Origin: Candidatus Woesearchaeota archaeon
Lineage (GTDB): Archaea; Nanobdellota; Nanobdellia; Pacearchaeales; GW2011-AR1
Length of the DNA: 51,059 nucleotides
NCBI GenBank assembly: GCA_964437455.1
Contig: CAYTGG010000002.1
Span: 1-51,059, forward strand
Direction of reading: 5' to 3'
Positions 3,028-48,143 of the stretch are shown one piece after another. A program made the translations under genes and the position numbers. Below the pieces are notes generated by a model that saw only the letters and a program-made list of their open reading frames with translations, did no database searches and was not told the origin of the DNA. How positions within the stretch are numbered: the stretch's first letter is position 1; every line of letters begins with the position of its first letter.

Positions 3028-3099
3028 GGTCTTAAGATTATTTTTTAAGATTAAAAATTAAATAAATAAGTTTAAAAAACAAAAAAATTAAAGATTAAA

Positions 3100-8292: not shown

Positions 8293-8904
8293 ATGTTTTG
8301 GTTTTGGAAAAAGAGGGATATTGAAGAATTAAAAGAAGAAACAAAAAAGAGTTTTGATGCTGTTAAAAAAGATGTAGTCTCTGTAAATGGTTGGATTAGG
8401 CATCTAAATTCAGAAAAAGATCTTCAAAATAAAAATATTTCTGAAATAAAAGAAGATTTATCGTCGATAAAAGATGAAATTGAAAATTTGAAGAATGTTA
8501 TATCTGTTATGGGAAATTTAAAAGGTACTTATAATAAAAAACAAACAAACAAACAGCTGTTTAATAAACAAACAGCTGTTTATGCTGTTCAAACAGCTGT
8601 TCAAACAGCTGTTCAAACACCAAATTTAGACCAATTTTCTATTACAGAGAGAGCAATTATTTGGATATTATTAACTAGTGAAGTAAAGTTAAGTTATGAT
8701 GACTTAGCATCTATTCTAGGAAAAGAAAAAGCTACAATTAGAGGTCAAATTAATCATATAAAACAGAAAAGTGAGGGTTTAATAGAAGAAATAATAGAAA
8801 AAAACAATAAAAAAAGGGTATATATACCTGAAAATATCAAAGAAAAACTGTTAAAAAAGACAAAAGTGAGACTTAAGGGAAGTAAAAAAGAAGAAGAAAA
8901 ATAA
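8293..8904 (+). CDS. coiled-coil + low-complexity linker + C-terminal winged-helix (HTH) protein
   Basis: N-terminal heptad-like EIKEDLSSIKDEIENLKNV; linker with (TAVQ)3 encoded by a perfect 3x12-nt tandem at 8584-8619; C-terminus ITERAIIWILLTSEVKLSYDDLASILGKEKATIRGQINHIKQK is wHTH-like. Confidence 0.7.
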   Translation: MFWFWKKRDIEELKEETKKSFDAVKKDVVSVNGWIRHLNSEKDLQNKNISEIKEDLSSIKDEIENLKNVISVMGNLKGTYNKKQTNKQLFNKQTAVYAVQTAVQTAVQTPNLDQFSITERAIIWILLTSEVKLSYDDLASILGKEKATIRGQINHIKQKSEGLIEEIIEKNNKKRVYIPENIKEKLLKKTKVRLKGSKKEEEK

Positions 8905-8932
8905 AATAGAGTAAATGATCATAAAAAATAGG

Positions 8933-9003
8933 GTAAAAATAATGAAAAGTGAGGGAAAATAGGGTAAAAATAAAGTAAAAATAATGAAAAGTGAGGGAAA
9001 ATA
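8933..9003. repeat. 29-bp perfect direct repeat GTAAAAATAATGAAAAGTGAGGGAAAATA x2 (8933-8961, 8975-9003)
   Basis: Read directly, in the gap between the two convergent paralogs; GAAAAGTGAGGG also occurs inside the upstream CDS near 8765. Confidence 0.85.
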
Positions 9004-9101
9004 TAAAGAGTTTATAAAAGAAGTTTAGGAATAAGAAAGTAAATATTAGAGAATTTAAAAAATAAGAGAGAAGAGAATTAGTTAGTCGTTTAAGAGATTA
9101 A

Positions 9102-9746
<645 letters not shown>

Positions 9747-14369: not shown

Positions 14370-17300
14370 ATGGATACTGAACTTTATTTTAAAAATATTG
14401 AAAAAGAAGTAAGAAAAGTTTATTCTATAGCAGAAGAAGCGAGAGCTAAAAATTTTGACCCTATAGATAAAGTAGAGATACCTCTTGCCATGACCATGGC
14501 TGCAAAGGTAGTTGGATTGATCTCTACAATCTATCCTCAAATGACTGATTCTGGAATTGATAAAAGAATCTTGGAATTGGAGGAACAATATGGAAAATTA
14601 GATGCTACTGTTGTTTTTAAGATTGCAGAAGAAGTTGCTAAGCAAAAATTTTGTAAATTCTCAAATCTTTTAGAATCTATTGATGCAGGAATAAGAATTG
14701 GTTTTGCTTATACTACTTTAGGAGTGGTCTCCTCTCCTATAGAAGGATTTACAGGATTAAAATTGGGAAAAACAAAAAAAGGAGAAGATTATTTTATTGC
14801 TTATTTTTCTGGGCCTATAAGAAGCGCAGGAACTACTGCTAGTTGTTTAGTATTAATGCTTATTGATTATCTTAGAGAGCTTTTTGGATTTGCAAAATAT
14901 GATCCTACAGAAGAAGAAATTAGAAGATATATTACAGAATGTTCTGATTATCATGAAAGAGTTACTAATCTTCAGTATATGGGAACAGAAGAGGAACTTG
15001 AATTTTTATCCAAAAATCTTCCAATACAGATAGCAGGAGAACCTACAGAAAAACTTGAAGTTTCAAATTATAAAAATCTGGAGAGAGTAGATACTAATTA
15101 TATTCGTGGAGGAATGACTCTAATATTTTCAGAGGGTTTAGCACAAAAAGCAGCGAAAGGTTTTAGATTATTAAATGGAGCAAAGAAGAATGGAATAAAA
15201 TCAACAGGATTTGATTTCTTAAAACAATATATAGAACTACATGAAAAAAGAAATATTGAAGGAAAAGATAGTGATGAGAGGCCTACTTACATAAAAGATT
15301 TAGTTGCTGGACGACCGATATTTGGACATCCTTCTAAGTCAGGAGGATTTAGGATGAGATATGGAAGGAGTAGAGTTAACGGTTTTAGTTCAGTTTCCTT
15401 AAGTCCTGCTACTATGGTTATTACAGATAGTTTTATTTCTATAGGAACTCAATTAAAAATAGAGAAACCAACTAAAGGATGCTGTACTACTGTTTGTGAT
15501 TCTATAGAAGGGCCTATAGTTAAATTATTTAATGGGAATGTTAAGAAAATTAAAACAAAAGAAGAAGCGAAAAAACTTTATCCAGATGTTGAGGAGATAA
15601 TATATTTGGGAGATATACTTTTTCCTTATAGTGATGTAGTTAATAGAAATGCACAATTAATAAAACCAGGTTATGTTGAGGAATGGTGGAATTTAGAACT
15701 TGAAAAAAAAGGAGGAAAAGTTGAAGATTACTATAATGTTCCTTTTGAAAAAGCAAAAGAATTGAGTAAAAAATACGAAATCCCTCTTCATCCTCATTTT
15801 ATTTTTTATTGGACTCAAATAACAAAAGAGCAATTTTTAGATTTAATTGAACTGCTTAAATTTTCTTGGATAAACTCCGGAAAACTTATTCTTCCCTTTT
15901 ATAAATCTGAACAAGAAAAGTTTGAGAAAGGAAAAAGAGCTCTTGAAATTTTAGGAGTTGAGCATACAGTTAGTGTAGAACATATTATTCTAGAACCTGG
16001 AACAAGTGAATTATTATTCTCTAATTTAGGATTGGATACTAATCTATTAACTAAAAATGAATTTTTTATTAAAAATGAAATCTCTAAATTAGAAGATAAA
16101 ATTGTAAGAGTAAAATTCCAAAATTCCAAAATTCCTTCAGAGGAAAGTAAAGTTTTATTTTTGATTAATAGTCTTTCTGAGTTTAAAATAAAAGATAAAG
16201 CAGGAGAATTTATTGGAAGTAGAATGGGAAGACCAGAAAAAGCAAAATTAAGAAAGCTTGCTGGAAGTCCCAATATTTTATTTCCTGTTGGAAAAGAAGG
16301 AGGAAGATTAAGAAGTGTTCAAGCCGCATGCGAAGAAGGATATATCAAAAATAATTTTCCTCTTTATTATTGTGAGAATTGTGACAAAGAGACCATTTAT
16401 CCTTATTGTGAAATTTGTGGAAAGAAAACAAGAAAGAAATACTCTTTTTTAGATGGAGAGAAATCTATTAATAAAGTTAGAGGAGAAGAGATAGGAGTTT
16501 CTTATGAAACAAAATCTTTAGATATAAATTATTATCTAAAAAAAGCAAAAGAGCAATTAGGAATTAAAGAACAGGATATGCCTCCTTTAATTAAAGGAGT
16601 TAGAGGAACAAGTTCAGAGGGACATATGATGGAAAATCTTTCTAAAGGAATTTTAAGAGCAAAATATAATTTACAAGTTAATAAAGATGGAACAATAAGG
16701 TTCGATGCTACTGAATTACCTTTAGTTGCCTTTAAACCAAAAGAAATTTCTGTAGATATAAGTAAATTAAAAGAATTAGGTTATGATAAAGATGTTTTTG
16801 GTAATGATTTGATTAATGAAGAACAAATTATTGAATTAATGCCTCATGATATTCTTCTTCCAAGCTGTCCAGAATCTCCTGATGAAAAAGCAGATGATGT
16901 TTTTATTAAAATTTCTAATTTTATTGATGAACTTTTAGTTAGATTTTATAAACTAAAAGCGTTTCATAATGTTAAGAAACGGGAAGATTTAGTTGGACAA
17001 TTAGGAGTTTGTATGGCTCCCCATAATTGTGCAGGAGTTGTTTGTAGGATAATTGGTTTTTCAGAAAGTTTAGGGCTATTAGCAAGTCCTTATATGCATG
17101 CTGCAATAAGGCGTGATTGTGATGGAGATGAAGCTGCTGTAATGCTTTTGTCAGATGTTTTGTTAAATTTTTCTAGAGAATTTTTACCAAGTCATAGGGG
17201 TGGAACTCAGGACGCTCCTTTAGTTCTAAATGCTAAAATAAATGCAGGAGAAGTTGATGATCAAATACTTGATTTTGAGCTTATCTCTTCTCCAGGAGGA

Positions 17301-17879
17301 AGTTATCCTTTAGAACTTTATGAATCTGCTGAAAAAAAGAGACATTCTTCTGAAGTTAAAATAGATTCTATTAAGACTATCTTAAAAGAAGGTAAAAATC
17401 CATTCATTAATTTAGGATATACTCATGAAACTTCTAATTTTAATGATGGAGTTAGATGTTCTAGTTATAAATTTCTTTCTACTATGCAGGAAAAAGTCCA
17501 ACATCAGATGGAATTAGTTGAAAGATTAAGGGCTGTGGATACTGCTGATACAGCTAAATTAATTATTGATAGACATTTCTTGAGAGATATAAAAGGTAAT
17601 CTAAGAAATTTCTCAACTCAATCTTTTAGATGTGTTAAGTGTAATACTATTTTTAGAAGACCTCCTTTATCTGGAATATGTGATAGATGTGGAGGAAAAT
17701 TAATTTTTACAGTTAATGAAGGAGGAATTAGAAAATATCTAGATCCAGCAAGAGATTTAGCTAAGAAATATAATCTTTCTACTTATATCTTGCAAAATTT
17801 AGATTTAGTTAAAAGATTTATAGATAGTATCTTTGGAAGAGAATTAGAAAAACAAGAAGATTTAGGGAAATGGTTTTAA
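14370..17879 (+). CDS. dp2: DNA polymerase II (PolD) large catalytic subunit DP2
   Basis: ATG 14370 (MDTELYFKNIEKEVRKVYSIAEEARAK, a typical DP2 N-terminus) preferred to the TTG at 14334; Zn modules CENCDKETIYPYCEICG and CVKCN...CDRCGG; no intein-sized insert. Confidence 0.9.
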   Translation: MDTELYFKNIEKEVRKVYSIAEEARAKNFDPIDKVEIPLAMTMAAKVVGLISTIYPQMTDSGIDKRILELEEQYGKLDATVVFKIAEEVAKQKFCKFSNLLESIDAGIRIGFAYTTLGVVSSPIEGFTGLKLGKTKKGEDYFIAYFSGPIRSAGTTASCLVLMLIDYLRELFGFAKYDPTEEEIRRYITECSDYHERVTNLQYMGTEEELEFLSKNLPIQIAGEPTEKLEVSNYKNLERVDTNYIRGGMTLIFSEGLAQKAAKGFRLLNGAKKNGIKSTGFDFLKQYIELHEKRNIEGKDSDERPTYIKDLVAGRPIFGHPSKSGGFRMRYGRSRVNGFSSVSLSPATMVITDSFISIGTQLKIEKPTKGCCTTVCDSIEGPIVKLFNGNVKKIKTKEEAKKLYPDVEEIIYLGDILFPYSDVVNRNAQLIKPGYVEEWWNLELEKKGGKVEDYYNVPFEKAKELSKKYEIPLHPHFIFYWTQITKEQFLDLIELLKFSWINSGKLILPFYKSEQEKFEKGKRALEILGVEHTVSVEHIILEPGTSELLFSNLGLDTNLLTKNEFFIKNEISKLEDKIVRVKFQNSKIPSEESKVLFLINSLSEFKIKDKAGEFIGSRMGRPEKAKLRKLAGSPNILFPVGKEGGRLRSVQAACEEGYIKNNFPLYYCENCDKETIYPYCEICGKKTRKKYSFLDGEKSINKVRGEEIGVSYETKSLDINYYLKKAKEQLGIKEQDMPPLIKGVRGTSSEGHMMENLSKGILRAKYNLQVNKDGTIRFDATELPLVAFKPKEISVDISKLKELGYDKDVFGNDLINEEQIIELMPHDILLPSCPESPDEKADDVFIKISNFIDELLVRFYKLKAFHNVKKREDLVGQLGVCMAPHNCAGVVCRIIGFSESLGLLASPYMHAAIRRDCDGDEAAVMLLSDVLLNFSREFLPSHRGGTQDAPLVLNAKINAGEVDDQILDFELISSPGGSYPLELYESAEKKRHSSEVKIDSIKTILKEGKNPFINLGYTHETSNFNDGVRCSSYKFLSTMQEKVQHQMELVERLRAVDTADTAKLIIDRHFLRDIKGNLRNFSTQSFRCVKCNTIFRRPPLSGICDRCGGKLIFTVNEGGIRKYLDPARDLAKKYNLSTYILQNLDLVKRFIDSIFGRELEKQEDLGKWF

Positions 17880-17931
17880 CGAAACATTTATAATTAATAT
17901 TAAATTATTTTTATTATAAAATTATTATAAA

Positions 17932-18543
17932 ATGGTGGATTCAAGAGCTTATAATTATCTTAAGAAATATTCAGGAAAATATAGCATAGAAAATTTAAAG
18001 AAGAAATTAATTAATTCTGGTTATTCAAGAAAAGTAGTTGATGAGGCGATTGTCGCTTTAAGAAATGATTCTCAGATTAAAAAAAAGCCTATAAAAAAAG
18101 TAGTTGTTTCTAACAAGAAAGTTTTGAATAATAAATCTATTCCACAAAAGACAAATAATCCTCCTATAAAAAATCAATTACAGAAGAAGAAAGAGATTAA
18201 TAAAAAACCTTTAACAAATCAAAAAAAGATTAAATTTAATATAGATACTACAGATAATCAAGGAAAGATTAAAACAAATCGAATCAAAGTTCAATCTAAA
18301 GTTGGAAATAATTCACAGGAAAATAAAGTTCAACATTCAACAGTACAAACAACTCCAGCAAATTCAAAATCAATATTAGAAAATTCAAAACAAAAAAATT
18401 CACAAGTGTCGGAAAAACAAACTTCTCAATCAAATTTAGAACAAAATCCAAAATCAGCTTCTAAATTATGGATTTGGATTATTATAATTATTGGAGTTTT
18501 ATTAATAGGTGGAGGAATAGCTGCATTCTTTTTATTAAAATAA
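17932..18543 (+). CDS. tail-anchored low-complexity protein (small helical N-domain, K/N/Q-rich spacer, C-terminal TM)
   Basis: C-terminus LWIWIIIIIGVLLIGGGIAAFFLL is the single TM; long polar repeat-poor spacer. Confidence 0.6.
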   Translation: MVDSRAYNYLKKYSGKYSIENLKKKLINSGYSRKVVDEAIVALRNDSQIKKKPIKKVVVSNKKVLNNKSIPQKTNNPPIKNQLQKKKEINKKPLTNQKKIKFNIDTTDNQGKIKTNRIKVQSKVGNNSQENKVQHSTVQTTPANSKSILENSKQKNSQVSEKQTSQSNLEQNPKSASKLWIWIIIIIGVLLIGGGIAAFFLLK

Positions 18544-19722
18544 ATACCAAATAATTACTGGAAGTAATAAACAACCCATCATATGAGTTCTTCTTACTCT
18601 TAAACCTATACAATATATTCCTGTAAATGTAGATATTATTAAAATTAATAATCCATAAAAACCTGAAATAAAATACACCAAAATTATTAATACCAGTAAA
18701 GTCGAAAGAGATAGAAAAGTATAATTTACTTTTTCTATTCTAGATGAAAAAAATTTTGCTAAGAAAATTGTTAAGAAAAAAGCAATTATTCCACTAAAGA
18801 TTACTGTTAATAAAATTAAAATTAAGATTTCAGTTGAGATTTTTCCAATTATTTCTTTAATTGCAACAGCTGCTCCGGTTCTTGTTTTTGATATTATATA
18901 AAGAGATACAAAAGAGAAACTCATAACTAGAGTATTAGTGGCACCTAATAGAACAAGGAAACCTTTTTTATCTGTCTTAGAGAGGATATTTCCTATAATC
19001 GCTGCTTGGCCAGAACCTAAACCAGGAAGAAAACTACAGAGTGGAGAAGCAATAGAAGCTCCTAATAATGGTTTTATCATCTTAATTTTTATTTTTGAGA
19101 TTTTCTGTTTAGGAATCTCAATTTTATTTTTTATGCTTAATATCAACATGGAACTTCCAAAAAGACCTGTAAGTAAAGGAAGAAGTGGTTGATTTATAGC
19201 TTCGTTATTTAGAACACACAAACCTAGAAATCCAGTAAGAAGGAAAACAAAAAGAGCTTTATCTTTTTTCTTTTCTAGAGAGATTAATAATATAGAAACT
19301 ATAATTAACAAAAAAAGAATAAAATCTTTAATTATTTCGTAAGTTTTTGAAATGAGAAATATAAAAGGAACACAATAGAAAATGAGAATTAATAGGGCTG
19401 CTAAACTTCCATAGGCAGTTAACATAACCGCCTCATAACCTCTTCCTTTTTTTAGTAATTCATGTCCAGGTAAAACACTTAATTCTGTATCTGTATCAGG
19501 ACAACCTAGAAATACTGAAGGAATAAAATCAATAAATGTATGAGTAATTGCCATAGAAACTATAAAAACTATAAGATATATCGGTTCTATTGAAAAAAAT
19601 AAAGAAGATGAAAGAGAAATCAAGAAAAGTCCTATGAGATTTATATGAATTCCCGGAATTAGGCCTGTGAAGGTGCCTACCAATATGCCGAGTAGAACAG
19701 TGACGATAAGTTCCAATAACAT
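18535..19722 (-). CDS. polytopic membrane protein, TctA/DUF112-like
   Basis: About 10+ TM segments; N-terminus LGILVGTFTGLIPGIHINLIG and later LPGLGSGQAAI resemble the repeated G-x-x-PG-(I/L)G motifs of the DUF112/TctA family. Confidence 0.55.
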   Translation of the reverse strand: MLLELIVTVLLGILVGTFTGLIPGIHINLIGLFLISLSSSLFFSIEPIYLIVFIVSMAITHTFIDFIPSVFLGCPDTDTELSVLPGHELLKKGRGYEAVMLTAYGSLAALLILIFYCVPFIFLISKTYEIIKDFILFLLIIVSILLISLEKKKDKALFVFLLTGFLGLCVLNNEAINQPLLPLLTGLFGSSMLILSIKNKIEIPKQKISKIKIKMIKPLLGASIASPLCSFLPGLGSGQAAIIGNILSKTDKKGFLVLLGATNTLVMSFSFVSLYIISKTRTGAAVAIKEIIGKISTEILILILLTVIFSGIIAFFLTIFLAKFFSSRIEKVNYTFLSLSTLLVLIILVYFISGFYGLLILIISTFTGIYCIGLRVRRTHMMGCLLLPVIIWYLF

Positions 19723-38196: not shown

Positions 38197-40485
38197 ATGG
38201 ATTTTAAAAAAGAGACTTCTCTGTATTCTTCTGAAGTTCGTAGAGAAGGAGGAGAAGATATTCTTTACTTAAATTATTTAGGCGCATCCTATGTTCCTAG
38301 TTTGGCAGATTATCCAGAAATTATGGAAAGAACTATCGATGTTTTAATGCAAAATCCAAATGTTTCTAGAATAGTTTTTGTTCAACAAAAAAATTATAAT
38401 TATGATTTAGAAGAAACACTTTTACTTTTAGAGATAGCACAACTTTATACTTATCTTATCCGACAGGAGAATATTCTTTCACAAAATAAACTAATTACTA
38501 ATATTCCTTCCTTTTTTTCTAAGAGATATAATCAAATATTTTCTTTTTTGCTTTTATTAAAGAGAGATCCTATTGCAGCTTATTTAGAAATAAAAAAAAT
38601 TCTTATAGAATCTAAAATATCTCTTGAGAGAATTGAACCTTTCTACAAAAATGATCAATTAAATTATATAAATCTTGTAGAAGAAGTCTTGAAATTAATG
38701 GAAGAAACAAAATTAATTCAGAAAGCTATTCCTTTTCTTGAGAATTACAAAAAAGGAGATAGAGAGATATACTATAAACTTTTTATTCCAGATGTAATTC
38801 CAAATTTTACTTTTACACGTCTTGTTTCAGATCTTCCAGAAGATGCAGAGATTATCAACCAATATGAAATCTCTTCCGGAGATTATTCTAAATCTTTAAT
38901 TACTATATTAAGGAAAAAAGATAAATCAAAATTAATTTATCATATAAATCCTCCAGAATATTCTCTAAGTGAAGATTCTAATATTCTTCTGAATCTTGCA
39001 AGAGATGTTTTAATTGAACATCAACCTAAGGCAGAAGAATTTACAGATACAGAAAGAATTAGGAAGGTCTTCTTTAATGTTTCTAAAGATTTGTTAAAGG
39101 ATTTAGCTAGTCTAAAAAAAATAAATTTGAGTTATGATGAATTAAATAAATTATCTAGAATTTTAGTGAGAAATACTGTTGGATTTGGACTTATAGAAAT
39201 TTTACTCCAAGATAAAAAGATTCAAGATATTTCTCTAAATGCTCCCATTCCTCTCACACCTATTTTTATAAGACATCAAGATTATGATGAATGTTCAACT
39301 AATATTCTTCCTAGTCAAGAGGATATTGATTCTTGGGCAGCTAAATTTAGAATGGTTTCCGGAAGACCTTTGGATGAAGCAAATCCTATTTTAGATACAC
39401 AATTAGAAGTTGATAATATAAGAGCAAGAATTTCAATAATTCAGAGTCCTTTATCTCCCGATGGTTTAGCTTATTCTATAAGAAGGCATAGAGAAGAGCC
39501 TTGGACTCTTTCTCTTTTCGTAAAAAATAAAATGCTTAATCCTTTTACTGCAGGTTTATTCAGTTTTTTAATTGATGGTTCTAGAACTATGTTAATTGCA
39601 GGAACGAGAAGTTCAGGTAAAACTTCTCTTTTAGGAAGTTTAATGTTAGAGATTATTCCTAAATTAAGAATTATAGTTATTGAAGATTCCCTTGAGTTGC
39701 CTGTAGAATCTCTAAGGAAACTGGAATATGATATTTTAAGGATGAAAGTTAGAAGCGCTTTATTAAAAACAGGAACAGAAGTTTCTGCTGATGATGGAAT
39801 AAGAACAAGTTTAAGATTAGGAGATAGTTGTTTGATTTTGGGAGAGGTGAGAAGTGTAGAGGCTAAAGCTTTATATGAAGCAATGAGAGTGGGTGCTTTA
39901 GCAAATGTAGTAGCTGGAACTATTCACGGTGCTTCTCCCTATGCTGTTTTTGATAGAGTTGTAAATGATTTAGATGTACCCGCAACTTCTTTTAAAGCTA
40001 CAGATATCATTGGAGTTTGCAATCCTATAAAGTCTCCTGATGGTCTTCATTCATGGAAAAGAGTTCTTCAATTGTCAGAAGTTAGAAAACATTGGAAAGA
40101 AGATCCTTTACAAGAAAATGGTTTTGTAGATCTATTAAAGTATAATGTAGAAAAAGACGAACTTGAAGCTTCAGAAGATTTAAAGAATGGAGATTCTGAA
40201 ACTGTAAAAAATATTGCAGCAAATGTAAAAGGATGGGCTGGAAATTGGGATGCTATCTATGATAATATTTTATTAAGAGCTAAAATAAAAAAAGAACTTG
40301 TTGAAATTGCGGAAAAAACAAAAAATGAGAGACTTTTAGAAGCAGAGTTTAATATTTTATCTAATCATATGTTTCATAGATTCTCAGATGAGATAAATAA
40401 AGAAATTGGTCTGCCTTTAAGTGAAAGAGTTTTTCCTGAATGGCAGAAATGGCTAAATAAGGAAATAAAGAAAAGAAAAATCTGA
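38197..40485 (+). CDS. type II/IV secretion-family ATPase (archaeal PilB/ArlI(FlaI)-like), unusually long (762 aa)
   Basis: Walker A GTRSSGKTS, Walker B IIVIEDSLEL, ILGEVRSVEA, His box GTIHGAS, upstream IQDISLN; long extra N- and C-terminal regions. Confidence 0.85.
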   Translation: MDFKKETSLYSSEVRREGGEDILYLNYLGASYVPSLADYPEIMERTIDVLMQNPNVSRIVFVQQKNYNYDLEETLLLLEIAQLYTYLIRQENILSQNKLITNIPSFFSKRYNQIFSFLLLLKRDPIAAYLEIKKILIESKISLERIEPFYKNDQLNYINLVEEVLKLMEETKLIQKAIPFLENYKKGDREIYYKLFIPDVIPNFTFTRLVSDLPEDAEIINQYEISSGDYSKSLITILRKKDKSKLIYHINPPEYSLSEDSNILLNLARDVLIEHQPKAEEFTDTERIRKVFFNVSKDLLKDLASLKKINLSYDELNKLSRILVRNTVGFGLIEILLQDKKIQDISLNAPIPLTPIFIRHQDYDECSTNILPSQEDIDSWAAKFRMVSGRPLDEANPILDTQLEVDNIRARISIIQSPLSPDGLAYSIRRHREEPWTLSLFVKNKMLNPFTAGLFSFLIDGSRTMLIAGTRSSGKTSLLGSLMLEIIPKLRIIVIEDSLELPVESLRKLEYDILRMKVRSALLKTGTEVSADDGIRTSLRLGDSCLILGEVRSVEAKALYEAMRVGALANVVAGTIHGASPYAVFDRVVNDLDVPATSFKATDIIGVCNPIKSPDGLHSWKRVLQLSEVRKHWKEDPLQENGFVDLLKYNVEKDELEASEDLKNGDSETVKNIAANVKGWAGNWDAIYDNILLRAKIKKELVEIAEKTKNERLLEAEFNILSNHMFHRFSDEINKEIGLPLSERVFPEWQKWLNKEIKKRKI

Positions 40486-40582: not shown

Positions 40583-42745
40583 ATGGTGGAAAATATTGAT
40601 GCAAAAGATATCTTAAGAAAATATGGTGCTAAAATAGAAGAGCAGATCAAAGTCTCAAAAACTGGAGAATTTAATTATAGTAATGAATATACAAAATTTA
40701 GAGAAGAAGCAGGAAAAGACCTCTCTAGATATGAACGTCTTTGTAATTCTTTAGGTAGAATAATAAAATTAAATATTTCTGAAAAAGATGAGAAAAAACT
40801 TAGAAAGTACATAGAAATTGCGCATTTAAATATAGAGCCCTGGCAAGTTTTAACTTTAAGTGTAATAACTTTTCTAGGAATTTTTTTATTTAGTTTGTTA
40901 TTTTCCTCATCATTAGCTTATTTTAAAGGGAGCATTTCAGAATTTCCTTTTATTTTTTTCTTTTTAATGATTATTTTTTCTGTATTTGTCTTCTATTTTA
41001 TGAATAATTATCCAAAAAGATTAGTAAATAAATGGAGACTTAAAGCTTCTTCTCAAATGGTCCCTGCAATTCTTTATGTAGTAGTCTACATGAGACATAC
41101 TTCTAATTTAGAAAGAGCAATTGCTTTTGCTGCAGAAAATTTACAAGAGCCCCTATCACTTGATTTTAAGAAAGTTTTTTATGATGTTTCCATAGGAAAA
41201 TTTTCAACTATAAAATCTAGTTTAGATAATTATCTAGAGTCTTGGAGAGATTATTCTGTAGAGTTTGTTGAAGCTTTTCATTTAATTGAAGCTAGCCTAT
41301 TTGAGATAGATAATCACAGAAGAATTTCTTCTCTTGAAAAATCAATTCAAATTATTCTGGATGGAGTTTATAACAAAATGTTGAAATTTACTCATTCTGT
41401 TAGAAGTCCCTTGACTAATGTTTATATGCTAGGAGTTGTTTTGCCTACTTTAGCTTTAGCATTACTTCCTTTAGCATCTGCTATGCTGGGAGGAATGATT
41501 CAATGGTATCATGTTCTTATTTTATTTAATTTAATTATTCCTTTTTTCATCTTTTATCTTACAGATCAAATTATGTCTTTAAGACCAGGAGGTTATGGAG
41601 AAACTGAACTTTTAGAAAGAAATCCCTTTTATTATAAATATAAAAATAATAGTGTTTATTTTAAATCCTTTTTAATTTGCTTTCCTCTTTTTATACTTAG
41701 TTTATTACCAATAATATTCCAATTTACTTCTGTTCCTGAATTAATTGGACTTCAAAAGGATTATTCTTTTTCTGATTTAGGTTTAAGTTTTTTAGGAGAT
41801 TCAAATCTCTTTGACTTTAAAGAATCTGGAATAGGAATTACAGGGCCTTTTGGTTTAGGTGCGATTCTTCTTAGTATGTTTTTTCCTTTAAGTATAGCCA
41901 TCTTCTTTTCAATCTCTTATAAAAGTAAAACTAAAGAATTAATAATAGAAAGAGAGAATACCAAGCAACTTGAAGATGAGTTTAACAATTCTCTATTTCA
42001 ATTAGGAAATAGAATACAAAGTGGAATTCCTCTTGAACTTTCTTTTGGTAAGGTTGCTGAATCTTCGAGAGGATTAAGAACAGAGGATTTTTTCAGAAGA
42101 GTTAATTATAATATTCGAAGAATGGGTATGAGTGTTGAGAAAGCTATCTTTAATCCAAGAAGAGGTGCTATAAACTATTATCCTTCTAATTTAATTTCTA
42201 CTAGCATGAGAATTCTGATTGAATCTTCAAAGAAAGGTCTTAGTGTTGCTGCTATAAGTCTTATAAGTATTTCTCAATATATAAAGAATATAAAAGATAT
42301 AACAAATCGCCTTAAAGACTTATTAGCTGAGATTATTTCAGATATGAAAAGTAATATGACTTTTCTAGCTCCTTTGCTTTCAGGAGTGGTTGTGGGTTTA
42401 GCTGCAATGATAACCTCTATTTTCAATCATCTAAAAATAATGGATCTTCAAGAAGTGGATACAGGAGGCTTTGGAGATTTAGGATCTATACTAAACATCT
42501 TTGATTTGTCAAAGATGATTCCTCCTTACTATCTTCAGATAATTGTTGGAATCTATTTAATTCAAGTAATCTTTATTTTAACTCGAACTTTAGTTTCAGT
42601 AGATTCTGGAGAAGATAAACTTGAAAGAGTGTCTAAAACAGGAAAAAATCTTATTAAAGGTATAGGTCTTTATTTTATAGTAGCATTTTTCTCTATTATA
42701 GTCTTGTTTATTTTAACTTTATTTGTTTTAGGAAATTTAATCTAA
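40583..42745 (+). CDS. polytopic membrane platform protein (PilC/TadC/ArlJ(FlaJ)-like), 720 aa
   Basis: Follows the ATPase; clusters of TM helices alternate with two soluble helical domains, the usual platform topology; assignment by context. Confidence 0.6.
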   Translation: MVENIDAKDILRKYGAKIEEQIKVSKTGEFNYSNEYTKFREEAGKDLSRYERLCNSLGRIIKLNISEKDEKKLRKYIEIAHLNIEPWQVLTLSVITFLGIFLFSLLFSSSLAYFKGSISEFPFIFFFLMIIFSVFVFYFMNNYPKRLVNKWRLKASSQMVPAILYVVVYMRHTSNLERAIAFAAENLQEPLSLDFKKVFYDVSIGKFSTIKSSLDNYLESWRDYSVEFVEAFHLIEASLFEIDNHRRISSLEKSIQIILDGVYNKMLKFTHSVRSPLTNVYMLGVVLPTLALALLPLASAMLGGMIQWYHVLILFNLIIPFFIFYLTDQIMSLRPGGYGETELLERNPFYYKYKNNSVYFKSFLICFPLFILSLLPIIFQFTSVPELIGLQKDYSFSDLGLSFLGDSNLFDFKESGIGITGPFGLGAILLSMFFPLSIAIFFSISYKSKTKELIIERENTKQLEDEFNNSLFQLGNRIQSGIPLELSFGKVAESSRGLRTEDFFRRVNYNIRRMGMSVEKAIFNPRRGAINYYPSNLISTSMRILIESSKKGLSVAAISLISISQYIKNIKDITNRLKDLLAEIISDMKSNMTFLAPLLSGVVVGLAAMITSIFNHLKIMDLQEVDTGGFGDLGSILNIFDLSKMIPPYYLQIIVGIYLIQVIFILTRTLVSVDSGEDKLERVSKTGKNLIKGIGLYFIVAFFSIIVLFILTLFVLGNLI

Positions 42746-42801
42746 GAATTTTTTATATTTTCTAACTAAACATTTATTAATTCTCTATTCTAATTCTATT
42801 T

Positions 42802-42963
42802 ATGATGAACATATCTAATAAAAAAGGAGTGATTGCAGATTATTTACCTTGGCTTTTAATTGCAATAGCAATTTTGACAATATTAATGATTTCTATTTTT
42901 GTACTTAAATCCGATGGAATTAATCTAATCGATAAAATTAAAAATTTATTTAAATTTGGATAA
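42802..42963 (+). CDS. tiny pilin-like protein (53 aa), class III-type signal KKG|V + hydrophobic helix
   Basis: MMNISNKKGVIADYLPWLLIAIAILTILMISIFVL; hand-called, below the track cutoff. Confidence 0.45.
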   Translation: MMNISNKKGVIADYLPWLLIAIAILTILMISIFVLKSDGINLIDKIKNLFKFG

Positions 42964-43700: not shown

Positions 43701-44512
43701 TGAAAATTCAAAGAAATAAAAAAGGAGAATTAACAACTCAGCAATTAGTAGTAATTATTATTTTAATAACTAGCTTTGCGATAATTTTACTTTTAATTTT
43801 TAGATTAGATTTAGGACAAGTAACAAATAAGGAGATCTGTCATAATTCTGTGGTTATGAAAGGAAATTCTAATCTAATGGGAAATTTGGATTGTAAAACT
43901 ACCTATGTTTGTATTTCTGGAGGAGAAGATTGTAAAAGTAGTTATGATATTAAAATAAAGATAAATGCTCATAAAGAACCTGAAAAAGTAAAAAGAGAAA
44001 TTATGAAGGCAGTTGCAGATGAAATGGTTGATTGTTGGTGGATGTTTGGTGAAGGAAAATTAGATTATTTAGGATTGAATATTAAAGGAACAACAATTGG
44101 AGAAAAGAATTGTGCTTTATGCTCAAGAATAAAGTTTAGTAGCGATTTAGAAAATGTTGAGATTACTCAAGATTCTTTTAAAGATTTTCTAAAAGAGACT
44201 AATTTAGATAATGAAATTTCTTATTCTTATTATCTCTATAAAACAAATAATTTAAATGATTTTAAAATAGAAGATATAAATACAAATTCAGGATATTATA
44301 TTCTTACAGGAATTGCTGATAAAGGAGCTTTGATATCTATGAAAGAATCTATCTTTGGTTCAGTAAATTTGATCAATAAAATCTTCTTTAGTTTTGTTTC
44401 CTTACCTAAGTTAAACGAAGAGTATGAAGATTATGGCCCTATTCCAGTTATTCTTAAAAAAGAAGAGGATATAAAAGATTTAGAGTGTGATGAATTTTTA
44501 ACTAGATCTTAA
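43700..44512 (+). CDS. pilin-like protein (270 aa), class III-type signal KKG|E, Cys-rich
   Basis: MKIQRNKKGELTTQQLVVIIILITSFAIILLLIF; 8 Cys in the ectodomain. Confidence 0.7.
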   Translation: MKIQRNKKGELTTQQLVVIIILITSFAIILLLIFRLDLGQVTNKEICHNSVVMKGNSNLMGNLDCKTTYVCISGGEDCKSSYDIKIKINAHKEPEKVKREIMKAVADEMVDCWWMFGEGKLDYLGLNIKGTTIGEKNCALCSRIKFSSDLENVEITQDSFKDFLKETNLDNEISYSYYLYKTNNLNDFKIEDINTNSGYYILTGIADKGALISMKESIFGSVNLINKIFFSFVSLPKLNEEYEDYGPIPVILKKEEDIKDLECDEFLTRS

Positions 44513-44564
44513 TCAATTTTAAATCTTCCAATAATTTTATTAATTCTTTATTCTATTCTTATTT

Positions 44565-45152
44565 ATGATTAAAGATAAAAAAAGAGGAATTTTTCCTTCG
44601 GAAAAAAGAGGAAATATAAAATTTCCTACACTTTTTCCTTCGGAAAAAAGAGGAAATATAAAATTTCCTACACTTTTTCCTTCGGAAAAAAGAGGAATTT
44701 TTCCTTCGGAAAAAAGAGGAAACAAGAAATTTCCTACACTTTTTCCTTCGGAAAAAAGAGGAAACATCCTTACTGAGGACATAATTTTTATTGTTCTTAA
44801 TTTAATTTTCTTTGTGATTATAATCCTTTTTATATCCTCAAAAATGAGTACTGCTGCTATTTTAGAAGAGAAATATTCAAAGCAAATAGCTCTTTTAATA
44901 GATTCTGCTGAGCCTGGTATGAGAATAGAAATAGATATGTCAGAAGGAATAGAAAAATTAGAGAATAATTGGGATAAAGATAAGATAGTAAATTTAAATG
45001 AAAATATTGTAACAATTAAGTTAAAAGAAGAAGGAGGATATTCTTATTCTTTTTTCAACAATGTTGAAATCTCAGACTTAAGTCATTTTGATGAGAAAGA
45101 AAATAAATTTATTCTAATAATTGATAGATATTATGAACAAAAAAGCGGATAA
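44565..45152 (+). CDS. pilin-like protein with ~66-aa repetitive leader (FPSEKRG repeats) before the hydrophobic helix
   Basis: The only ATG upstream of the TM segment NILTEDIIFIVLNLIFFVIIILFI is at 44565; the leader is encoded by the tandem array 44576-44763. Confidence 0.55.
   Translation: MIKDKKRGIFPSEKRGNIKFPTLFPSEKRGNIKFPTLFPSEKRGIFPSEKRGNKKFPTLFPSEKRGNILTEDIIFIVLNLIFFVIIILFISSKMSTAAILEEKYSKQIALLIDSAEPGMRIEIDMSEGIEKLENNWDKDKIVNLNENIVTIKLKEEGGYSYSFFNNVEISDLSHFDEKENKFILIIDRYYEQKSG
44576..44763. repeat. tandem array: 24-nt unit TTTTTCCTTCGGAAAAAAGAGGAA x5 (+ leading half unit) interleaved with an 18-nt spacer x3; every unit and junction is a perfect hairpin
   Basis: Units at 44590, 44632, 44674, 44698, 44740; spacers ATATAAAATTTCCTACAC (x2) and ACAAGAAATTTCCTACAC; stems TTTTTCC/GGAAAAA and AGGAAAT/ATTTCCT. 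Confidence 0.95.
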
Positions 45153-45642
45153 AATAATTTCAGTGTATTGGTTTGCAATTCTTTTGATAGTAACTGCAGT
45201 AATAGTTTATATGGTTCTTGTTTTTTATGGACAGCCATATAATATAAGAGAAGTTGAAGCAGATATACTAACAGATAAAATTTCTAATTGTATCTCAAAT
45301 GGAGGAAAATTAAATGAAAATTGGAAGAATCTAAAAGATAATAATCTACTTGAGATTTGTAATTTGAACTTTAATGTAGAAGATTATAAAAATTGGAAAA
45401 ATTTAGAACAATATTATATTGAAATTAATGATTATAAATTTGAGATTAATTCAGAAAAAGGATTTGGAAATTTAATAAAGACAGTTAAAGCTGGAAACTC
45501 TGAGTTAAAAGAAGACTGTGATAAAAATGATGAAAGTTTTTCTTTTTGTCTTGAAAGAAATTTTTATATCCTACAGAATAATGAAGAACATATAATTAAA
45601 ATTCTTTCAATAATTAAAAAAAATGAGAAAAATATTATTTAA
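45133..45642 (+). CDS. pilin-like protein (169 aa), signal KKA|D + hydrophobic helix
   Basis: ATG 45133 (MNKKADKIISVYWFAILLIVTAVIVYMVLVF); the track start 45121 is a TTG; 20-nt overlap with the upstream gene. Confidence 0.6.
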   Translation: MNKKADKIISVYWFAILLIVTAVIVYMVLVFYGQPYNIREVEADILTDKISNCISNGGKLNENWKNLKDNNLLEICNLNFNVEDYKNWKNLEQYYIEINDYKFEINSEKGFGNLIKTVKAGNSELKEDCDKNDESFSFCLERNFYILQNNEEHIIKILSIIKKNEKNII

Positions 45643-46165
45643 AGGACAAGTTGCTGAAACTATAACATGGATTGTTGCTACTGTAGTTATAATAGTAATT
45701 TTATCTGCTACTTTATCTATAAATGGTTTGAGTGGAGAAACTAAAGAGATTTTAAAATTGGATAAAAAAATAGAGGTTGACAAAAAAGTGGATTTGCTTA
45801 TGACTAAATCTTTTATGAGTTATCTTCTTACAAATGATGGAGGAGGAAGAATCTTTGATCAGTTGAAAGATGTAGAAACTGAATTGTATGCTCCAGAAAA
45901 GATAGTGTTTATTAATAAAAAACTTCTGAGTAAAATATTTCTTAATCTATATGAAGAGGATTTTAGTAGAGAATATATTCTTCTAAGAATTATTGCAGAG
46001 GAATGTATTGAGAATACTGCATGTAAAAATAATAGAAAATTATTAGATATTGGAGGATTGCCTTCTAATAAGTTGGAGAGAAATAAATTTTTCTATGAAA
46101 TAATTGAATTAAAAGATAGAGGAGCTGTAGAGAGAAATACTTTCTTAGAGATAATGCGTAATTAA
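45623..46165 (+). CDS. pilin-like protein (180 aa), class III signal FKG|Q
   Basis: MRKILFKGQVAETITWIVATVVIIVILSATL; 20-nt overlap with the upstream gene. Confidence 0.65.
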   Translation: MRKILFKGQVAETITWIVATVVIIVILSATLSINGLSGETKEILKLDKKIEVDKKVDLLMTKSFMSYLLTNDGGGRIFDQLKDVETELYAPEKIVFINKKLLSKIFLNLYEEDFSREYILLRIIAEECIENTACKNNRKLLDIGGLPSNKLERNKFFYEIIELKDRGAVERNTFLEIMRN

Positions 46166-46166
46166 A

Positions 46167-46556
46167 ATGGAAAACAAAAAAATAAAATTTAAAATTTTTA
46201 ATAAAAATTCTTTAAAAGAGAATAATAAAGCGAATCTTCCAATAACTATTTTTGTAATAGGTGTTATCGCAATTTGTATTTTAACAATCTTTAGTTTTGT
46301 TTTTTCTATTGGAAAAATTTCCTCAAAGAATTGGGGTTTTGAATTGATGGAAGAAGTAAAAGTAGATTTGGAAAAATTTTATTTTTATAAAAATATTGGC
46401 TTCTCAGATGAAGAATCTGCAGAGAAAATTAATGCAAGAGTCTTAGAAGAAGAAATTGAAGGAGAATTAGAAGAATATTTAATTATAAAAAAGAGCTCCG
46501 GAGAAATCGCTAAAGATAGGGTTTTAGTTACTTATAAATTTGCTTTGAAGAGATAA
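46167..46556 (+). CDS. pilin-like/single-TM protein (129 aa)
   Basis: A 22-aa basic leader ending NKA, then NLPITIFVIGVIAICILTIFSFVF; 1-nt gap after the upstream gene. Confidence 0.55.
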   Translation: MENKKIKFKIFNKNSLKENNKANLPITIFVIGVIAICILTIFSFVFSIGKISSKNWGFELMEEVKVDLEKFYFYKNIGFSDEESAEKINARVLEEEIEGELEEYLIIKKSSGEIAKDRVLVTYKFALKR

Positions 46557-46590
46557 TAAACTTTATAAATAAAAAAAACATAGTAACTCT

Positions 46591-47206: not shown

Positions 47207-47288
47207 CACTTCTAAAAATTTACTTTCTTTAAGGTTCTAATATTATTTAATCACTATTTTTATAAATCTGATTTCTTTTTATTTAATT

Positions 47289-48143
47289 ATGTATGAGGTG
47301 ATTTTTTTAATAATAATTGGAATAATCTGGTTTATTTTTGCCAGTATCTCAGATTTAAAAAAAAGAGAAGTAGCTAATTGGGTTAGCTTTTCTTTAATTA
47401 TCTTTGTTTTAGGATTTAGATTATTTTATAGTTTATTTAATAATAATTTCAATTTTTTTTATCAAGGTCTTTTTGGACTTGGAATTTTTTTGATATTAGC
47501 TAATCTTCTTTATTATGGAAGAATGTTTGCAGGAGCTGATGCGAAATTAATGATTGCTCTGGGAACTATTTTACCTTTCTCTGAAAATTTCTTGATAAAT
47601 ATTAAAATCTTTGTTTTATTTTTTATCTTATTTTTATTTGTTGGAGGAATTTACGGATTGTGTTGGTGTTTTAGCTTAAGTTTTAGAAATTTTAGAAATT
47701 TTAGAAAAGAATTTTATAGACAATTTAAAAATAATAAAAAATTATTTTATTCAGTTATACTCTTAGGTTTATTCTTAATGATATTGGGATTTTTTATGAA
47801 TATAACTCTTATATTTTATTCTGGAGTTCTTTCATTTATCCTCTCTTATTTATTCTTGTATACTAAAGCTGTAGATGAAAGTTGTATGATTAAGAAAATT
47901 CCAACAAAGAAATTAACTGAGGGAGATTGGCTTTATAAGCCTATTAAAGTAGGAAAAATCAAAATAAAACCTTTATGGCAGGGACTTTCTAGAAAAGATA
48001 TATATCTTCTAAGAAAATATAAAAAAGAAGTTAGAATAAGAGAGGGAATTCCTTATGTTCCAGTTTTCTTATTTAGTTTTTTAATCTTAATCTATATTTA
48101 TTACTCTAAACTATCTCTTATTCTATGGAATTCTATTTGGTAG
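47289..48143 (+). CDS. prepilin/preflagellin peptidase (A24 family, PibD/FlaK/EppA-like)
   Basis: First catalytic Asp context SISDLKKREVANW and second FAGADAKLMIALG (GxGD-like), in a polytopic membrane protein. Confidence 0.8.
   Translation: MYEVIFLIIIGIIWFIFASISDLKKREVANWVSFSLIIFVLGFRLFYSLFNNNFNFFYQGLFGLGIFLILANLLYYGRMFAGADAKLMIALGTILPFSENFLINIKIFVLFFILFLFVGGIYGLCWCFSLSFRNFRNFRKEFYRQFKNNKKLFYSVILLGLFLMILGFFMNITLIFYSGVLSFILSYLFLYTKAVDESCMIKKIPTKKLTEGDWLYKPIKVGKIKIKPLWQGLSRKDIYLLRKYKKEVRIREGIPYVPVFLFSFLILIYIYYSKLSLILWNSIW

Follow-up and report, generated by a model that had tools for sequence, protein, structure and literature searches.

The leader of a prepilin is generally regarded as a brief tag of constant length, and the presence of a hairpin-forming tandem array in the leader of a pilin-like gene of a Candidatus Woesearchaeota archaeon, a small DPANN organism of the symbiotic type, raises the question of how such an array arose and what, if anything, it does. 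The gene (44565-45152, forward strand) lies in the 51,059-nt contig CAYTGG010000002.1, the whole of which is referred to here as the window. We consider it moderately probable that the array is an in-frame minisatellite within the leader of a conserved DPANN pilin-like protein.

The array (44576-44763) consists of a half unit (AAAAAAGAGGAA, 44578-44589) and five exact copies of a 24-nt unit (TTTTTCCTTCGGAAAAAAGAGGAA) starting at 44590, 44632, 44674, 44698 and 44740, three of the five being followed by an 18-nt spacer (ATATAAAATTTCCTACAC twice, ACAAGAAATTTCCTACAC once). Exact matching and TRF both recover this layout as it had originally been described, with TRF periods of 42 (2.6 copies, 100%), 24 (2.0 copies, 100%) and 66 (95%). 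The expected number of matches to the unit in shuffles is zero, and no further copy is found in the 51-kb window with up to three mismatches allowed. All periods are multiples of 3, all units are in frame within the ORF, and reading from ATG 44565 yields six K-R-G motifs, each as had been claimed. The region can be resolved into the following features, all on the forward strand (an arrow marks a cleavage site):

44529..44543, + strand: putative BRE/TATA-like promoter box CAATAATTTTATTAA, with exact ATAATTTTATTAA at 44531-44543
44565..44588, + strand: start codon and predicted ancestral short leader MIKDKKRG, from alignment with array-less orthologs
44589..44612, + strand: Module S copy 1 (24 nt, IFPSEKRG), from repeat finding and allele comparison
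44613..44654, + strand: Module A copy 1 (42 nt, NIKFPTLFPSEKRG), from repeats; alignable with long leaders found in other orthologs
44655..44696, + strand: Module A copy 2, from repeat finding and allele comparison
44697..44720, + strand: Module S copy 2, from repeat finding and allele comparison
44721..44762, + strand: Module B (42 nt, NKKFPTLFPSEKRG), its last residues being the KRG that precedes the helix
44760..44765, + strand: predicted class III signal peptidase site G66↓N67 (family consensus KRG↓NILTEN, E at +5)
44763-44834, + strand: N-terminal hydrophobic helix NILTEDIIFIVLNLIFFVIIILFI
44763..45152, + strand: predicted mature pilin-like protein, 129 aa and a stop codon, the same in each of the five alleles

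Openness of the array frame is weak evidence and not diagnostic, since four of the six frames run through the repeats without a stop. A reverse-strand ORF of 80 aa (44540-44782) was taken as a by-product of the palindromes, the -1 and -2 frames being open since the array mirrors itself. ATG 44565 had been proposed as the sole usable start, and indeed no other ATG, GTG or TTG occurs upstream of the helix. The head that it begins, MIKDKKRG, aligns with MIEFRKRG (P0003/L002) and MIKGKRGA (P0004), both from array-less orthologs. The TTATTAA of the promoter box ends exactly 21 nt 5' of ATG 44565; the same distance to the orthologous ATG is seen in 35 of 70 species-level loci, while in another 29 of the 70 an upstream stop codon abuts the orthologous ATG instead. 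The orthologous starts and the constant distance of the box support ATG 44565 as the likely ancestral start.

A TATA-like box (TTATTAA or TTTATAAA) spaced at 21-22 nt also precedes the window genes at 42802, 46591 and 47289, and from standard archaeal promoter geometry the box at 44529..44543 would act as a promoter. Given that it ends 21 nt before the ATG, a leaderless mRNA beginning at ATG 44565 is predicted, and its first 19 nt remain unpaired in the fold prediction. The predicted TSS thereby falls upstream of the array and not downstream of it, the latter being the arrangement that the original prediction had set against a translated array. Transcription would then begin at ATG 44565 and translation would run through the repeats. 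The fixed 21-nt TATA-to-ATG spacing may also be of practical use for assigning starts and delimiting transcription units in such genomes.

The encoded protein belongs to a large DPANN family of pilin-like proteins (901 clusters at 50% identity). The 634 aligned homologues are nearly all 126-135 aa long, with a modal 5-aa leader (MKKRG↓N) and the N-terminus MKKRG↓NILTENIIFIVLNL. Leaders in the family normally span 5-8 residues, the longest outside the window alleles being about 40 aa, and the 66-aa leader of the window is the largest N-terminal extension among the best 150 of 901 family representatives. Because both MIKDKKRG and the last KRG↓NILTED align with the family N-terminus, and so flank the array at the conserved cleavage motif, the array can be placed as an insertion inside the leader.

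The resemblance of K-R-G to positions -3 to -1 of a prepilin site holds for the last copy, which aligns with the conserved positions of the family directly before the helix. The G/A at -1 and K/R at -2 typical of class III substrates stand right before the hydrophobic segment (EKRG↓NILTED), and a hydrophobic helix of about 20 residues follows, both in the sequence and in the AF2 model. The leader itself, at 44-66 aa across alleles, exceeds the few to about 30 residues of class III substrates. Positions -2, -1 and +1 matter most to archaeal SPase III (PMC3387779). Cleavage would be expected at the last site only, after G66. The AF2 model (pLDDT 86.4) has a long N-terminal helix (model residues 7-35 and 38-55) followed by a beta domain, an architecture compatible with a pilin. 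Profile and structure searches did not recover a pilin: neither Pfam nor NCBIfam gave a pilin hit, a PDB profile search gave no significant pilin match (E = 0.73), and the best Foldseek hit against PDB (E = 0.025) is not a pilin.

The surroundings are those of an archaeal type IV filament locus, in which genes for an ATPase, a platform protein and an A24 peptidase lie nearby:

38197-40485, + strand: type IV filament ATPase (T2SSE 5e-12; FlaI/TadA-like models 1e-35 to 1e-37)
40583-42745, + strand: polytopic platform-like membrane protein, 720 aa (position and hydrophobicity)
45133-45642, 45623-46165 and 46167-46556, + strand: three downstream pilin-like genes, overlapping or abutting
47289..48143, + strand: prepilin/preflagellin (A24) peptidase (PF01478 2.5e-11; FlaK_Arch 1.9e-9)

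A T2SSE/FlaI-like ATPase and a PF01478 peptidase occur in the window and in every syntenic locus, and the gene order is kept in loci L001-L008 and L090-L093. The 720-aa protein is the putative platform, judging from position and hydrophobicity, and the A24 peptidase is presumed to process the array-bearing precursor. The downstream pilin-like genes have the N-termini MNKKA↓D, MRKILFKG↓Q and ...NNKA↓N, and the leaders of the neighbouring pilin-like genes span 5-22 aa, close to the 5-25 aa first estimated. No promoter box was seen before any of the three downstream genes, which probably share a transcription unit with the array gene.

Comparison of closely related strains bears directly on how the array behaves. 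Six assemblies of one population, with 0-3 mismatched nt across 5.4 kb of flanking DNA, carry five array layouts: S-A-A-S-B (the window), A-C-B-B, S-A-B-B (four contigs), S-A-S-B-B and S-A-B. The allele proteins are 173-195 aa long, with leaders of 44-66 aa and an identical 129-aa mature part, and the units of 24, 36 and 42 nt are all multiples of 3, such that every allele is in frame. The suggestions that the array is an expandable leader and a slippage hot spot are directly supported by these five alleles in a near-clonal population. The array recurs in every one of the independent assemblies, at least six in number and drawn from at least five samples, and is therefore not itself the assembly artefact that had been feared. 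The source samples are JGI 3300001335, 3300001533, 3300077201, 3300077563 and 3300077566 and the one behind the present MAG. The differences between alleles were read from short-read metagenome assemblies, in which repeats of 42-66 nt can be mis-ordered or collapsed, and exact copy numbers are therefore uncertain.

By sequence, the 14-aa module is an amplification of a long-leader element that the family already possessed. Long leaders (16-30 aa) are present in about 15% of orthologs, whereas about 80% have 5-12-aa leaders without any hairpin; a one-module leader aligns with the former, which are of the type FFxYxFxPKNxKG, and strings of the unit's DNA recur in L012, L018 and L035. The nearest array-less relative, which is syntenic and has the same upstream region, reads ATGATTGAATTTAGAAAAAGAGGAAATATTCTT. 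Perfect stems of at least 7 bp occur in 62% of long leaders; in short-leader orthologs, judged over their first 69 nt, the figure is 7% (Mann-Whitney p = 1.6e-4; against shuffles, Fisher p = 1.5e-4). One ortholog (L005) has a separate two-copy, 30-nt in-frame tandem in the same leader, each copy with its own hairpin. The long leaders are scattered over an NJ tree built from the short mature domain, and the tree is too noisy to separate repeated gain from repeated loss. The association of hairpins with long leaders, and the survival of the module in species that have diverged, may indicate that the hairpins are under selection and not just tolerated.

There is reason to think, with moderate confidence, that the array is a slippage-prone but tolerated expansion of a cleaved cytoplasmic leader, the n-region of a class III signal peptide. 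The ancestral leader of the lineage would have been short (MIKDKKRG) or one module long (MIKDKKRG-NIKFPTLFPSEKRG). The 14-aa (42-nt) module would have supplied a Phe/Pro patch encoded by T-runs and then a second K-R-G encoded by an A/G-run, and with these runs the DNA alternates inverted copies, GGAAAAAAGAGGAAAT and ATTTCCTACACTTTTTCC. The proposed mechanism is that replication slippage or unequal recombination between direct copies, probably assisted by the hairpins, would have multiplied the module, with shorter deletion derivatives (24 and 36 nt) appearing as well, giving the present 3-5 modules and leaders of 44-66 aa. The window leader is basic (18 K/R vs 6 D/E) and the last KRG alone abuts the hydrophobic helix; because of these properties and of units in multiples of 3, N-in insertion and an A24 cut after G66 are expected. 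The same mature pilin would be released at every copy number, and expansion would be nearly neutral with fast turnover.

The folding of the array can be read in more than one way. All three hairpin types originally claimed are predicted, every one of them individually weak: TTTTTCC/GGAAAAA within the unit (7 bp, -4.4 kcal/mol), AGGAAAT/ATTTCCT at the unit-spacer junction (7 bp, -6.1 kcal/mol; at the third spacer 6 bp, -4.3) and AGGAA/TTCCT at the unit-unit junction (-4.3 kcal/mol). The sense strand of the array also folds better than shuffled controls, the comparison that had been proposed as a check (-54.5 kcal/mol vs -43.3 +/- 4.1; z = -2.77, none of 200 shuffles equalling it). The picture of about nine consecutive hairpins as one fixed chain does not survive, the MFE structure being a nested long-range fold with an ensemble frequency of 0.0002. 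The antisense strand folds more strongly than the sense strand (z = -4.53), and the signal is therefore one of palindromic design at the DNA level and not specific to the sense strand. A terminator-like scan returned 0 sites, and among Rfam covariance models there was no match to the array, a tRNA-Leu being the only match in the whole window; a bacterial-type terminator and a known RNA family were set aside on these grounds.

It might nevertheless be supposed, in line with the RNA-level regulator of the original prediction, that the modules with their hairpins and T5 tracts, located between +20 and +200 on a leaderless polycistronic mRNA, form a regulatory rheostat that tunes expression of the gene and of the three downstream pilin-like genes through transcription read-through, mRNA stability or translation initiation or elongation. 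Heritable changes in copy number would then give graded expression, a contingency locus without frameshifting. With the TSS predicted at the ATG, the array does come to lie near the mRNA 5' terminus, behind an unpaired stretch, copy number is variable in a clonal background, and hairpins are enriched in the long leaders of the family, where they begin 9-34 nt past the ATG. The two diverged copies in L005 both keep the hairpin, an inner pair being T-A in one and C-G in the other, consistent with compensatory change, and L018 has the CC-TTC-GG core of the window with the A and T arms swapped. The array also holds 5 T5 tracts in 199 nt, compared with 4.3 per kb (T5 or longer) in coding sense strands of the genome. 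However, such tracts are routinely read through in a genome of 26% GC, the hairpin element is dispensable for the gene given the roughly four-fifths of orthologs with hairpin-less leaders, single hairpins of -4 to -6 kcal/mol are weak and the ensemble diffuse, and the stronger antisense folding and the empty terminator and Rfam searches also speak against it; a rheostat is thus somewhat unlikely. Doubtful, in our judgement, is a frame-neutral contingency locus in which gain or loss of modules tunes the amount or processing of the four pilin-like proteins, which it would do by RNA structure, T-tracts or internal decoys competing for the peptidase. Copy number does differ among very close relatives, as judged from short-read assemblies, and the units of 24, 36 and 42 nt leave no frame-based ON/OFF switch. 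If such a contingency locus exists, it would provide an episymbiotic DPANN population with standing variation in pilus composition, and long leaders with hairpins would, across the 901-cluster family, double as coding and RNA elements in a disposable signal peptide.

The array might instead impair the protein, the basic leader of 44-66 aa or internal KRG↓N decoys blocking insertion or misdirecting the peptidase, with the result of partial loss-of-function alleles of a dispensable minor pilin or of internal cuts releasing small peptides. Modules A and B do copy the true site from -3 as far as +1/+2 (KRG↓NI, KRG↓NK), which include the key SPase III residues (PMC3387779), and the leader is far beyond the family range. 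Impairment is quite improbable, given a mature part that is 100% conserved, a frame kept in every allele, a variant that persists across samples, and internal sites that are without the hydrophobic helix that follows every family site. We regard as highly improbable a set of operators in which five 7-3-7 inverted repeats past the TSS bind a dimeric DNA-binding regulator as a roadblock: the perfect dyad TTTTTCC-TTC-GGAAAAA is present five times at +26 to +199 and wHTH proteins are encoded in the window, but the dyad is absent elsewhere in the 51 kb, orthologs conserve the presence of some hairpin and not its sequence, and the locus has no linked regulator gene.

A misassembly, or else a non-coding insertion (MITE, CRISPR-like) with the true start at ATG 44844, is effectively refuted as an explanation. 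The sequence is of low complexity and repetitive, and one contig (L092) breaks near the array, 74 nt upstream of the pilin-like gene; against this, six independent assemblies carry the array, and a start at 44844 would lose the invariant helix and the cleavage motif that define the 901-cluster family. A CRISPR-like array was ruled out by spacers that are identical or near-identical 18-mers and by the lack of cas genes, and a MITE or other dispersed element by the lack of dispersed copies in the window (up to three mismatches), the genome contigs and the metagenome and viral collections. The sole metagenome hit (L009) is unrelated purine-rich low-complexity DNA matched by chance. A protein search with the array alone missed the array's own protein, presumably through composition filters, and its sole match (P0124) is an unrelated protein with (TSASRRTLFPSEKR)x3.

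The natural series of leaders of 8, 22, 44, 58, 62 and 66 residues, with up to six recognition motifs before an otherwise identical pilin, constitutes a substrate panel for asking whether an archaeal prepilin peptidase reads the motif, the motif plus helix, or the distance from the N-terminus. A cleaved leader may be a 'safe harbour' in which hairpin-forming minisatellites arise and turn over quickly. Pili are thought important for host contact in DPANN archaea, and that these uncultured organisms vary pilus gene expression via such arrays is a testable idea.

The original prediction knew of no described equivalent, and literature searches on repeats in prepilin leaders found none either. There is a general likeness to archaeal class III signal peptides (FlaFind-type; FlaK, PibD, EppA), which share the K/R at -2, the G at -1, the helix of about 20 residues that comes next and a locus that also encodes an ATPase, a platform protein and an A24 peptidase; those described are short, whereas the leaders here are 44-66 aa, built of tandem cleavage-motif modules and variable among strains. 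Bacterial type IVb and Tad/Flp prepilins (TcpA, CofA, BfpA) have long leaders of about 13-30 aa, and resemble the array-bearing precursor in a long basic cytoplasmic leader, removal by an A24 peptidase (predicted here) and Glu at +5 of the mature protein. Their leaders, unlike the array, are unique sequences of fixed length and are not repetitive, hairpin-encoding or polymorphic in copy number.

Slippage-prone repeats in the 5' leader-coding part of a gene, with copy number varying among close relatives, are familiar from Neisseria opa (CTCTT) and Helicobacter oipA (CT), where tracts in the signal-peptide coding region make surface proteins phase-variable. Their units of 2 or 5 nt switch expression ON or OFF by frameshift, whereas those of the array are multiples of 3 and always in frame. 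The (CTG)n Leu repeat of human CNDP1 and the Leu repeat of PCSK9 are in-frame signal-peptide polymorphisms that are tolerated and can modulate secretion efficiency, and they share with the array a copy-number polymorphism confined to a cleaved signal peptide (cleavage being predicted here). They are trinucleotide runs of a single amino acid in a class I hydrophobic core, in contrast to cleavage-motif modules of 24-42 nt in a prepilin n-region.

The pil1 locus of Streptococcus gallolyticus likewise combines variable repeats in a translated 5' leader of pilus genes with a stem-loop: its leader peptide contains GCAGA repeats, and the position of the ribosome over the hairpin controls expression by attenuation (PMC3894217). 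At pil1 the leader is encoded upstream by a small ORF of its own, has a single strong terminator and switches in a frame-dependent manner, and the stem-loop of the related pil3 reaches -28 kcal/mol (PMC3894217). In the array, by contrast, no terminator follows, and weak hairpins lie inside repeats that form part of the pilin precursor itself.

The array protein, a 195-aa product of ORF 44565-45152, is encoded in an archaeal type IV filament locus, in a genome of 26% GC whose closest relatives are Woese-, Pace- and Nanoarchaeota (DPANN) MAGs. The locus includes the following:

38197-40485, FlaI/TadA-like ATPase
Polytopic membrane protein of 720 aa
Row of small proteins whose N-termini are K-[KR]-[GA] plus a helix
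47289-48143, A24 peptidase

Homologues number 634 in a 90%-identity collection and form 901 clusters at 50% identity. Nearly all are 126-135 aa long and begin M-K-K-R-G, followed across the cleavage site by N-I-L-T-E-N-I-I-F-I-V-L-N-L with Glu at +5, which is the archaeal class III signal peptide in textbook form, namely K/R at -2 and G/A at -1 ahead of a hydrophobic helix (PMC3387779). In alignments, residues 1-8 of the window protein (MIKDKKRG) pair with MIEFRKRG and MIKGKRGA from the closest orthologs lacking the array, and its last KRG, with the NILTED that follows, pairs with the family cleavage motif; since both match the family N-terminus, the array is an insertion exactly within the leader. 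The mature part gave a confident AF2 model (pLDDT 86.4) with a long N-terminal helix and a beta domain. Neither the model nor the sequence of this part matched solved pilins, and the putative label 'pilin-like' thus rests on signal peptide, helix and genomic context. The peptidase gene holds an exact 9-nt x3 repeat, TTTTAGAAA (47681-47707), read as FRNFRNFRK and invariant across the six assemblies of this near-clonal population. In L002, a syntenic array-less relative, a RadA/Rad51 gene (17160-19688) downstream of the pilus locus is interrupted by an intein that includes a LAGLIDADG domain.

The repeat anatomy of the original prediction was confirmed in the sequence. Five exact copies of the 24-mer TTTTTCCTTCGGAAAAAAGAGGAA (44590, 44632, 44674, 44698 and 44740) are preceded by the half unit AAAAAAGAGGAA, and 18-nt spacers follow three units (ATATAAAATTTCCTACAC twice, ACAAGAAATTTCCTACAC once); the TRF periods are 42, 24 and 66 nt, at 95-100% matching. 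No other copy of the 24-mer was found in the 51-kb window with up to three mismatches allowed, zero matches being the chance expectation. The intergenic region, array and helix-coding part are enclosed by a perfect 12-nt inverted repeat, GAGGATATAAAA / TTTTATATCCTC (44465-44476 and 44828-44839, arms 351 nt apart), which by eye is not kept in L002.

The closest homologue belongs to a 90% cluster of four sequences, which together with the window give five leader alleles, assembled from four modules:

Module S, IFPSEKRG, 24 nt
Module A, NIKFPTLFPSEKRG, 42 nt
Module B, NKKFPTLFPSEKRG, 42 nt
Module C, KFPTLFPSEKRG, 36 nt
Window allele, S-A-A-S-B, leader of 66 aa
Contig L001 allele, A-C-B-B, leader of 62 aa
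Contigs L090/L091 and two further contigs, S-A-B-B, leader of 58 aa
Contig L092 allele, S-A-S-B-B, leader of 66 aa
Contig L093 allele, S-A-B, leader of 44 aa

The 129-aa mature part is the same in all five, and across the flanks, 2.4 kb on the upstream side and 3 kb on the downstream side, the total difference from the window is 0-3 nt; with flanks near-identical and layouts different, the array turns over far faster than its surroundings. The three unit lengths are all multiples of three, so every allele remains in frame. Because the array leaves four of the six frames open, the case for translation is carried by this multiple-of-three rule and the conserved start, not by openness of frame. 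The alleles come from short-read assemblies, in which 42-66-nt repeats can be mis-ordered, so the precise copy numbers are uncertain; the presence of the array and the 36-nt variant are robust to this. The contig with S-A-S-B-B begins just 74 nt upstream of the gene (L092 position 1-75), a hint that assembly tends to fail in or close to the array, probably owing to strain heterogeneity. Sample 3300077563 holds both L092 and L002.

Elsewhere in the window, a (TGTC)x9.8 tract (9450-9488) lies inside a winged-HTH protein ORF (9102-9746, minus strand) and is read as (TDRQ)3; because one 4-nt unit gained or lost would shift the frame, this gene is a candidate phase-variable regulator. The gene next to it (8293-8904) has an exact 12-nt x3 repeat at 8584-8619, read as (AVQT)3, and the intergenic spacer between the two (8903-9009) contains overlapping 11/22/31/42-nt repeats of AAAATAGGGT-like units.

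Related leaders may inform the origin of the modules. About 15% of orthologs have long leaders of 16-30 aa with the pattern basic - F-F-x-Y-x-F-x-P - K-N-x-K-G, and a one-module version of the window leader (MIKDKKRG-NIKFPTLFPSEKRG) aligns with them. The window unit has DNA strings in common with three distant species: CTACACTTTTTCTTC with L012, AAAAAAAGAGGAATTTTT with L035 and CCTTCG...CTTTTTCC with L018. Perfect stems of at least 7 bp occur in 62% of long leaders (n = 13) versus 7% of short-leader orthologs (n = 55, first 69 nt of each), a hairpin enrichment with Mann-Whitney p = 1.6e-4 and Fisher combined p = 1.5e-4 against dinucleotide shuffles. In L005, a Hainich groundwater Nanoarchaeota contig, the ortholog leader independently contains an in-frame tandem of two 30-nt copies (3029-3088), each copy with its own 10-11-bp hairpin (ACGATTTTTTT/AAAAAAATCGT and ACAATTTTTC/GAAAAATCGT). 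Partial leader duplications are present in other family representatives, and duplicated KRG motifs (e.g. MQKRGKRG and MKRGFKKG) are common. Together, the long-leader hairpins, the L005 tandem and these duplications make the lengthening of leaders through hairpin-containing duplication a recurrent theme of this family; the window lineage is its extreme, its N-terminal extension exceeding all others in the best 150 of 901 representatives. A neighbouring pilin-like protein (46167-46556) has a 22-aa leader, MENKKIKFKIFNKNSLKENNKA followed by N, with a basic-aromatic-basic pattern like that of the family's long leaders. The array-only protein search returned P0124, an unrelated 110-aa protein that starts (TSASRRTLFPSEKR)x3, has TLFPSEKR in common with the window module and continues into a weak DXP-synthase/transketolase-like N-terminus; its repeat may represent this hairpin unit in another gene, or the resemblance may be coincidental.

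The three local hairpin types proposed earlier are all predicted, though each is weak (-4.3 to -6.1 kcal/mol). As had been anticipated, the sense array RNA folds better than its dinucleotide shuffles (-54.5 vs -43.3 +/- 4.1 kcal/mol, z = -2.77); its ensemble is diffuse (MFE frequency 0.0002), and the antisense folds more strongly than the sense (z = -4.53). Both strands fold well because a single motif recurs along the array in alternating orientation, GGAAAAAAGAGGAAAT and its inverted copy ATTTCCTACACTTTTTCC, and the design is therefore a DNA-level palindromic one, not sense-specific RNA.

Of 70 species-level loci, 35 have a box, (C)AATAATTTTATTAA, whose end lies exactly 21 nt ahead of the orthologous ATG; a further 29 instead have the upstream stop codon directly against that ATG. 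The corresponding regions are:

44529-44543, TATA-like box, the putative promoter of the array gene
42781-42801, 44529-44564, 46557-46590 and 47256-47288, box-to-ATG regions in the window; orthologous loci, L002-L089

Similar boxes (TTATTAA or TTTATAAA) at 21-22 nt spacing precede window genes 42802, 46591 and 47289, which would imply leaderless transcripts and a pilus locus split into several transcription units. In standard archaeal promoter geometry the TATA box is centred ~26 nt upstream of the start site. From this geometry and the box position, the array-gene mRNA is predicted to be leaderless and to start at ATG 44565, with its first 19 nt unpaired in the predicted fold; a predicted four-gene transcript would carry the array at its 5' end. 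This counts against a start beyond the array, an objection foreseen in the original prediction. Leaderless mRNAs predominate in several archaea (PMC4983044).

The array is probably a slippage-prone minisatellite, tolerated within a disposable portion of the protein. The leader is strongly basic (18 K/R vs 6 D/E), which is compatible with N-in topology, only the last KRG adjoins the helix, and the A24 peptidase would free an identical mature pilin from every allele. The modules plausibly arose by inverted duplication of a Lys/Arg/Gly-coding run via the palindromic A-run/T-run design, and the same design plausibly drives slippage. Impaired or decoy processing of the precursor is a minor alternative: in modules A and B the residues at -3 to +2 of the true site recur. 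An operator array is likewise minor. An artefact or mobile element is effectively refuted, as the array is present in six assemblies and no dispersed copies of the unit were found in the window or in genome, metagenome or viral contigs.

The main rival, which we consider doubtful, is that the leaderless mRNA carries, at +20 to +200, hairpin and T5 modules that tune expression, with copy number as a rheostat. Hairpin enrichment across the family's long leaders favors such tuning, but ~80% of orthologs do without the element, the hairpins are weak, the antisense fold is the better one, terminator-like sites were absent in the scan and T5 tracts are abundant in coding DNA (4.3 per kb). The chance that the array truly is a frame-neutral rheostat of expression is modest.

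The window protein has the motif, helix and context of archaeal class III signal-peptide precursors, but its leader breaks the rule that these be short. The bacterial contingency loci opa and oipA are similar in position, in the signal-peptide coding region, and in variability; frameshifting, however, is their defining feature, and the window array lacks it. Eukaryotic examples of repeat polymorphism that stays in frame within a signal peptide are CNDP1 and PCSK9. Variable leader repeats with a hairpin are also found at pil1 of S. gallolyticus, but there they lie in an upstream ORF of their own, a single strong terminator is involved, and switching depends on the frame (PMC3894217). No description of a repeat-built or hypervariable prepilin leader was found in the literature searched, and a 2026 survey of archaeal TFF systems mentions no such leader in its passages on DPANN and class III signal peptides; the word 'leader' is absent from the survey. 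The feature is real, well delimited and now mostly explained; its alleles form a natural series for studying prepilin processing, and the array is an example of fast minisatellite turnover within a leader predicted to be cleaved.
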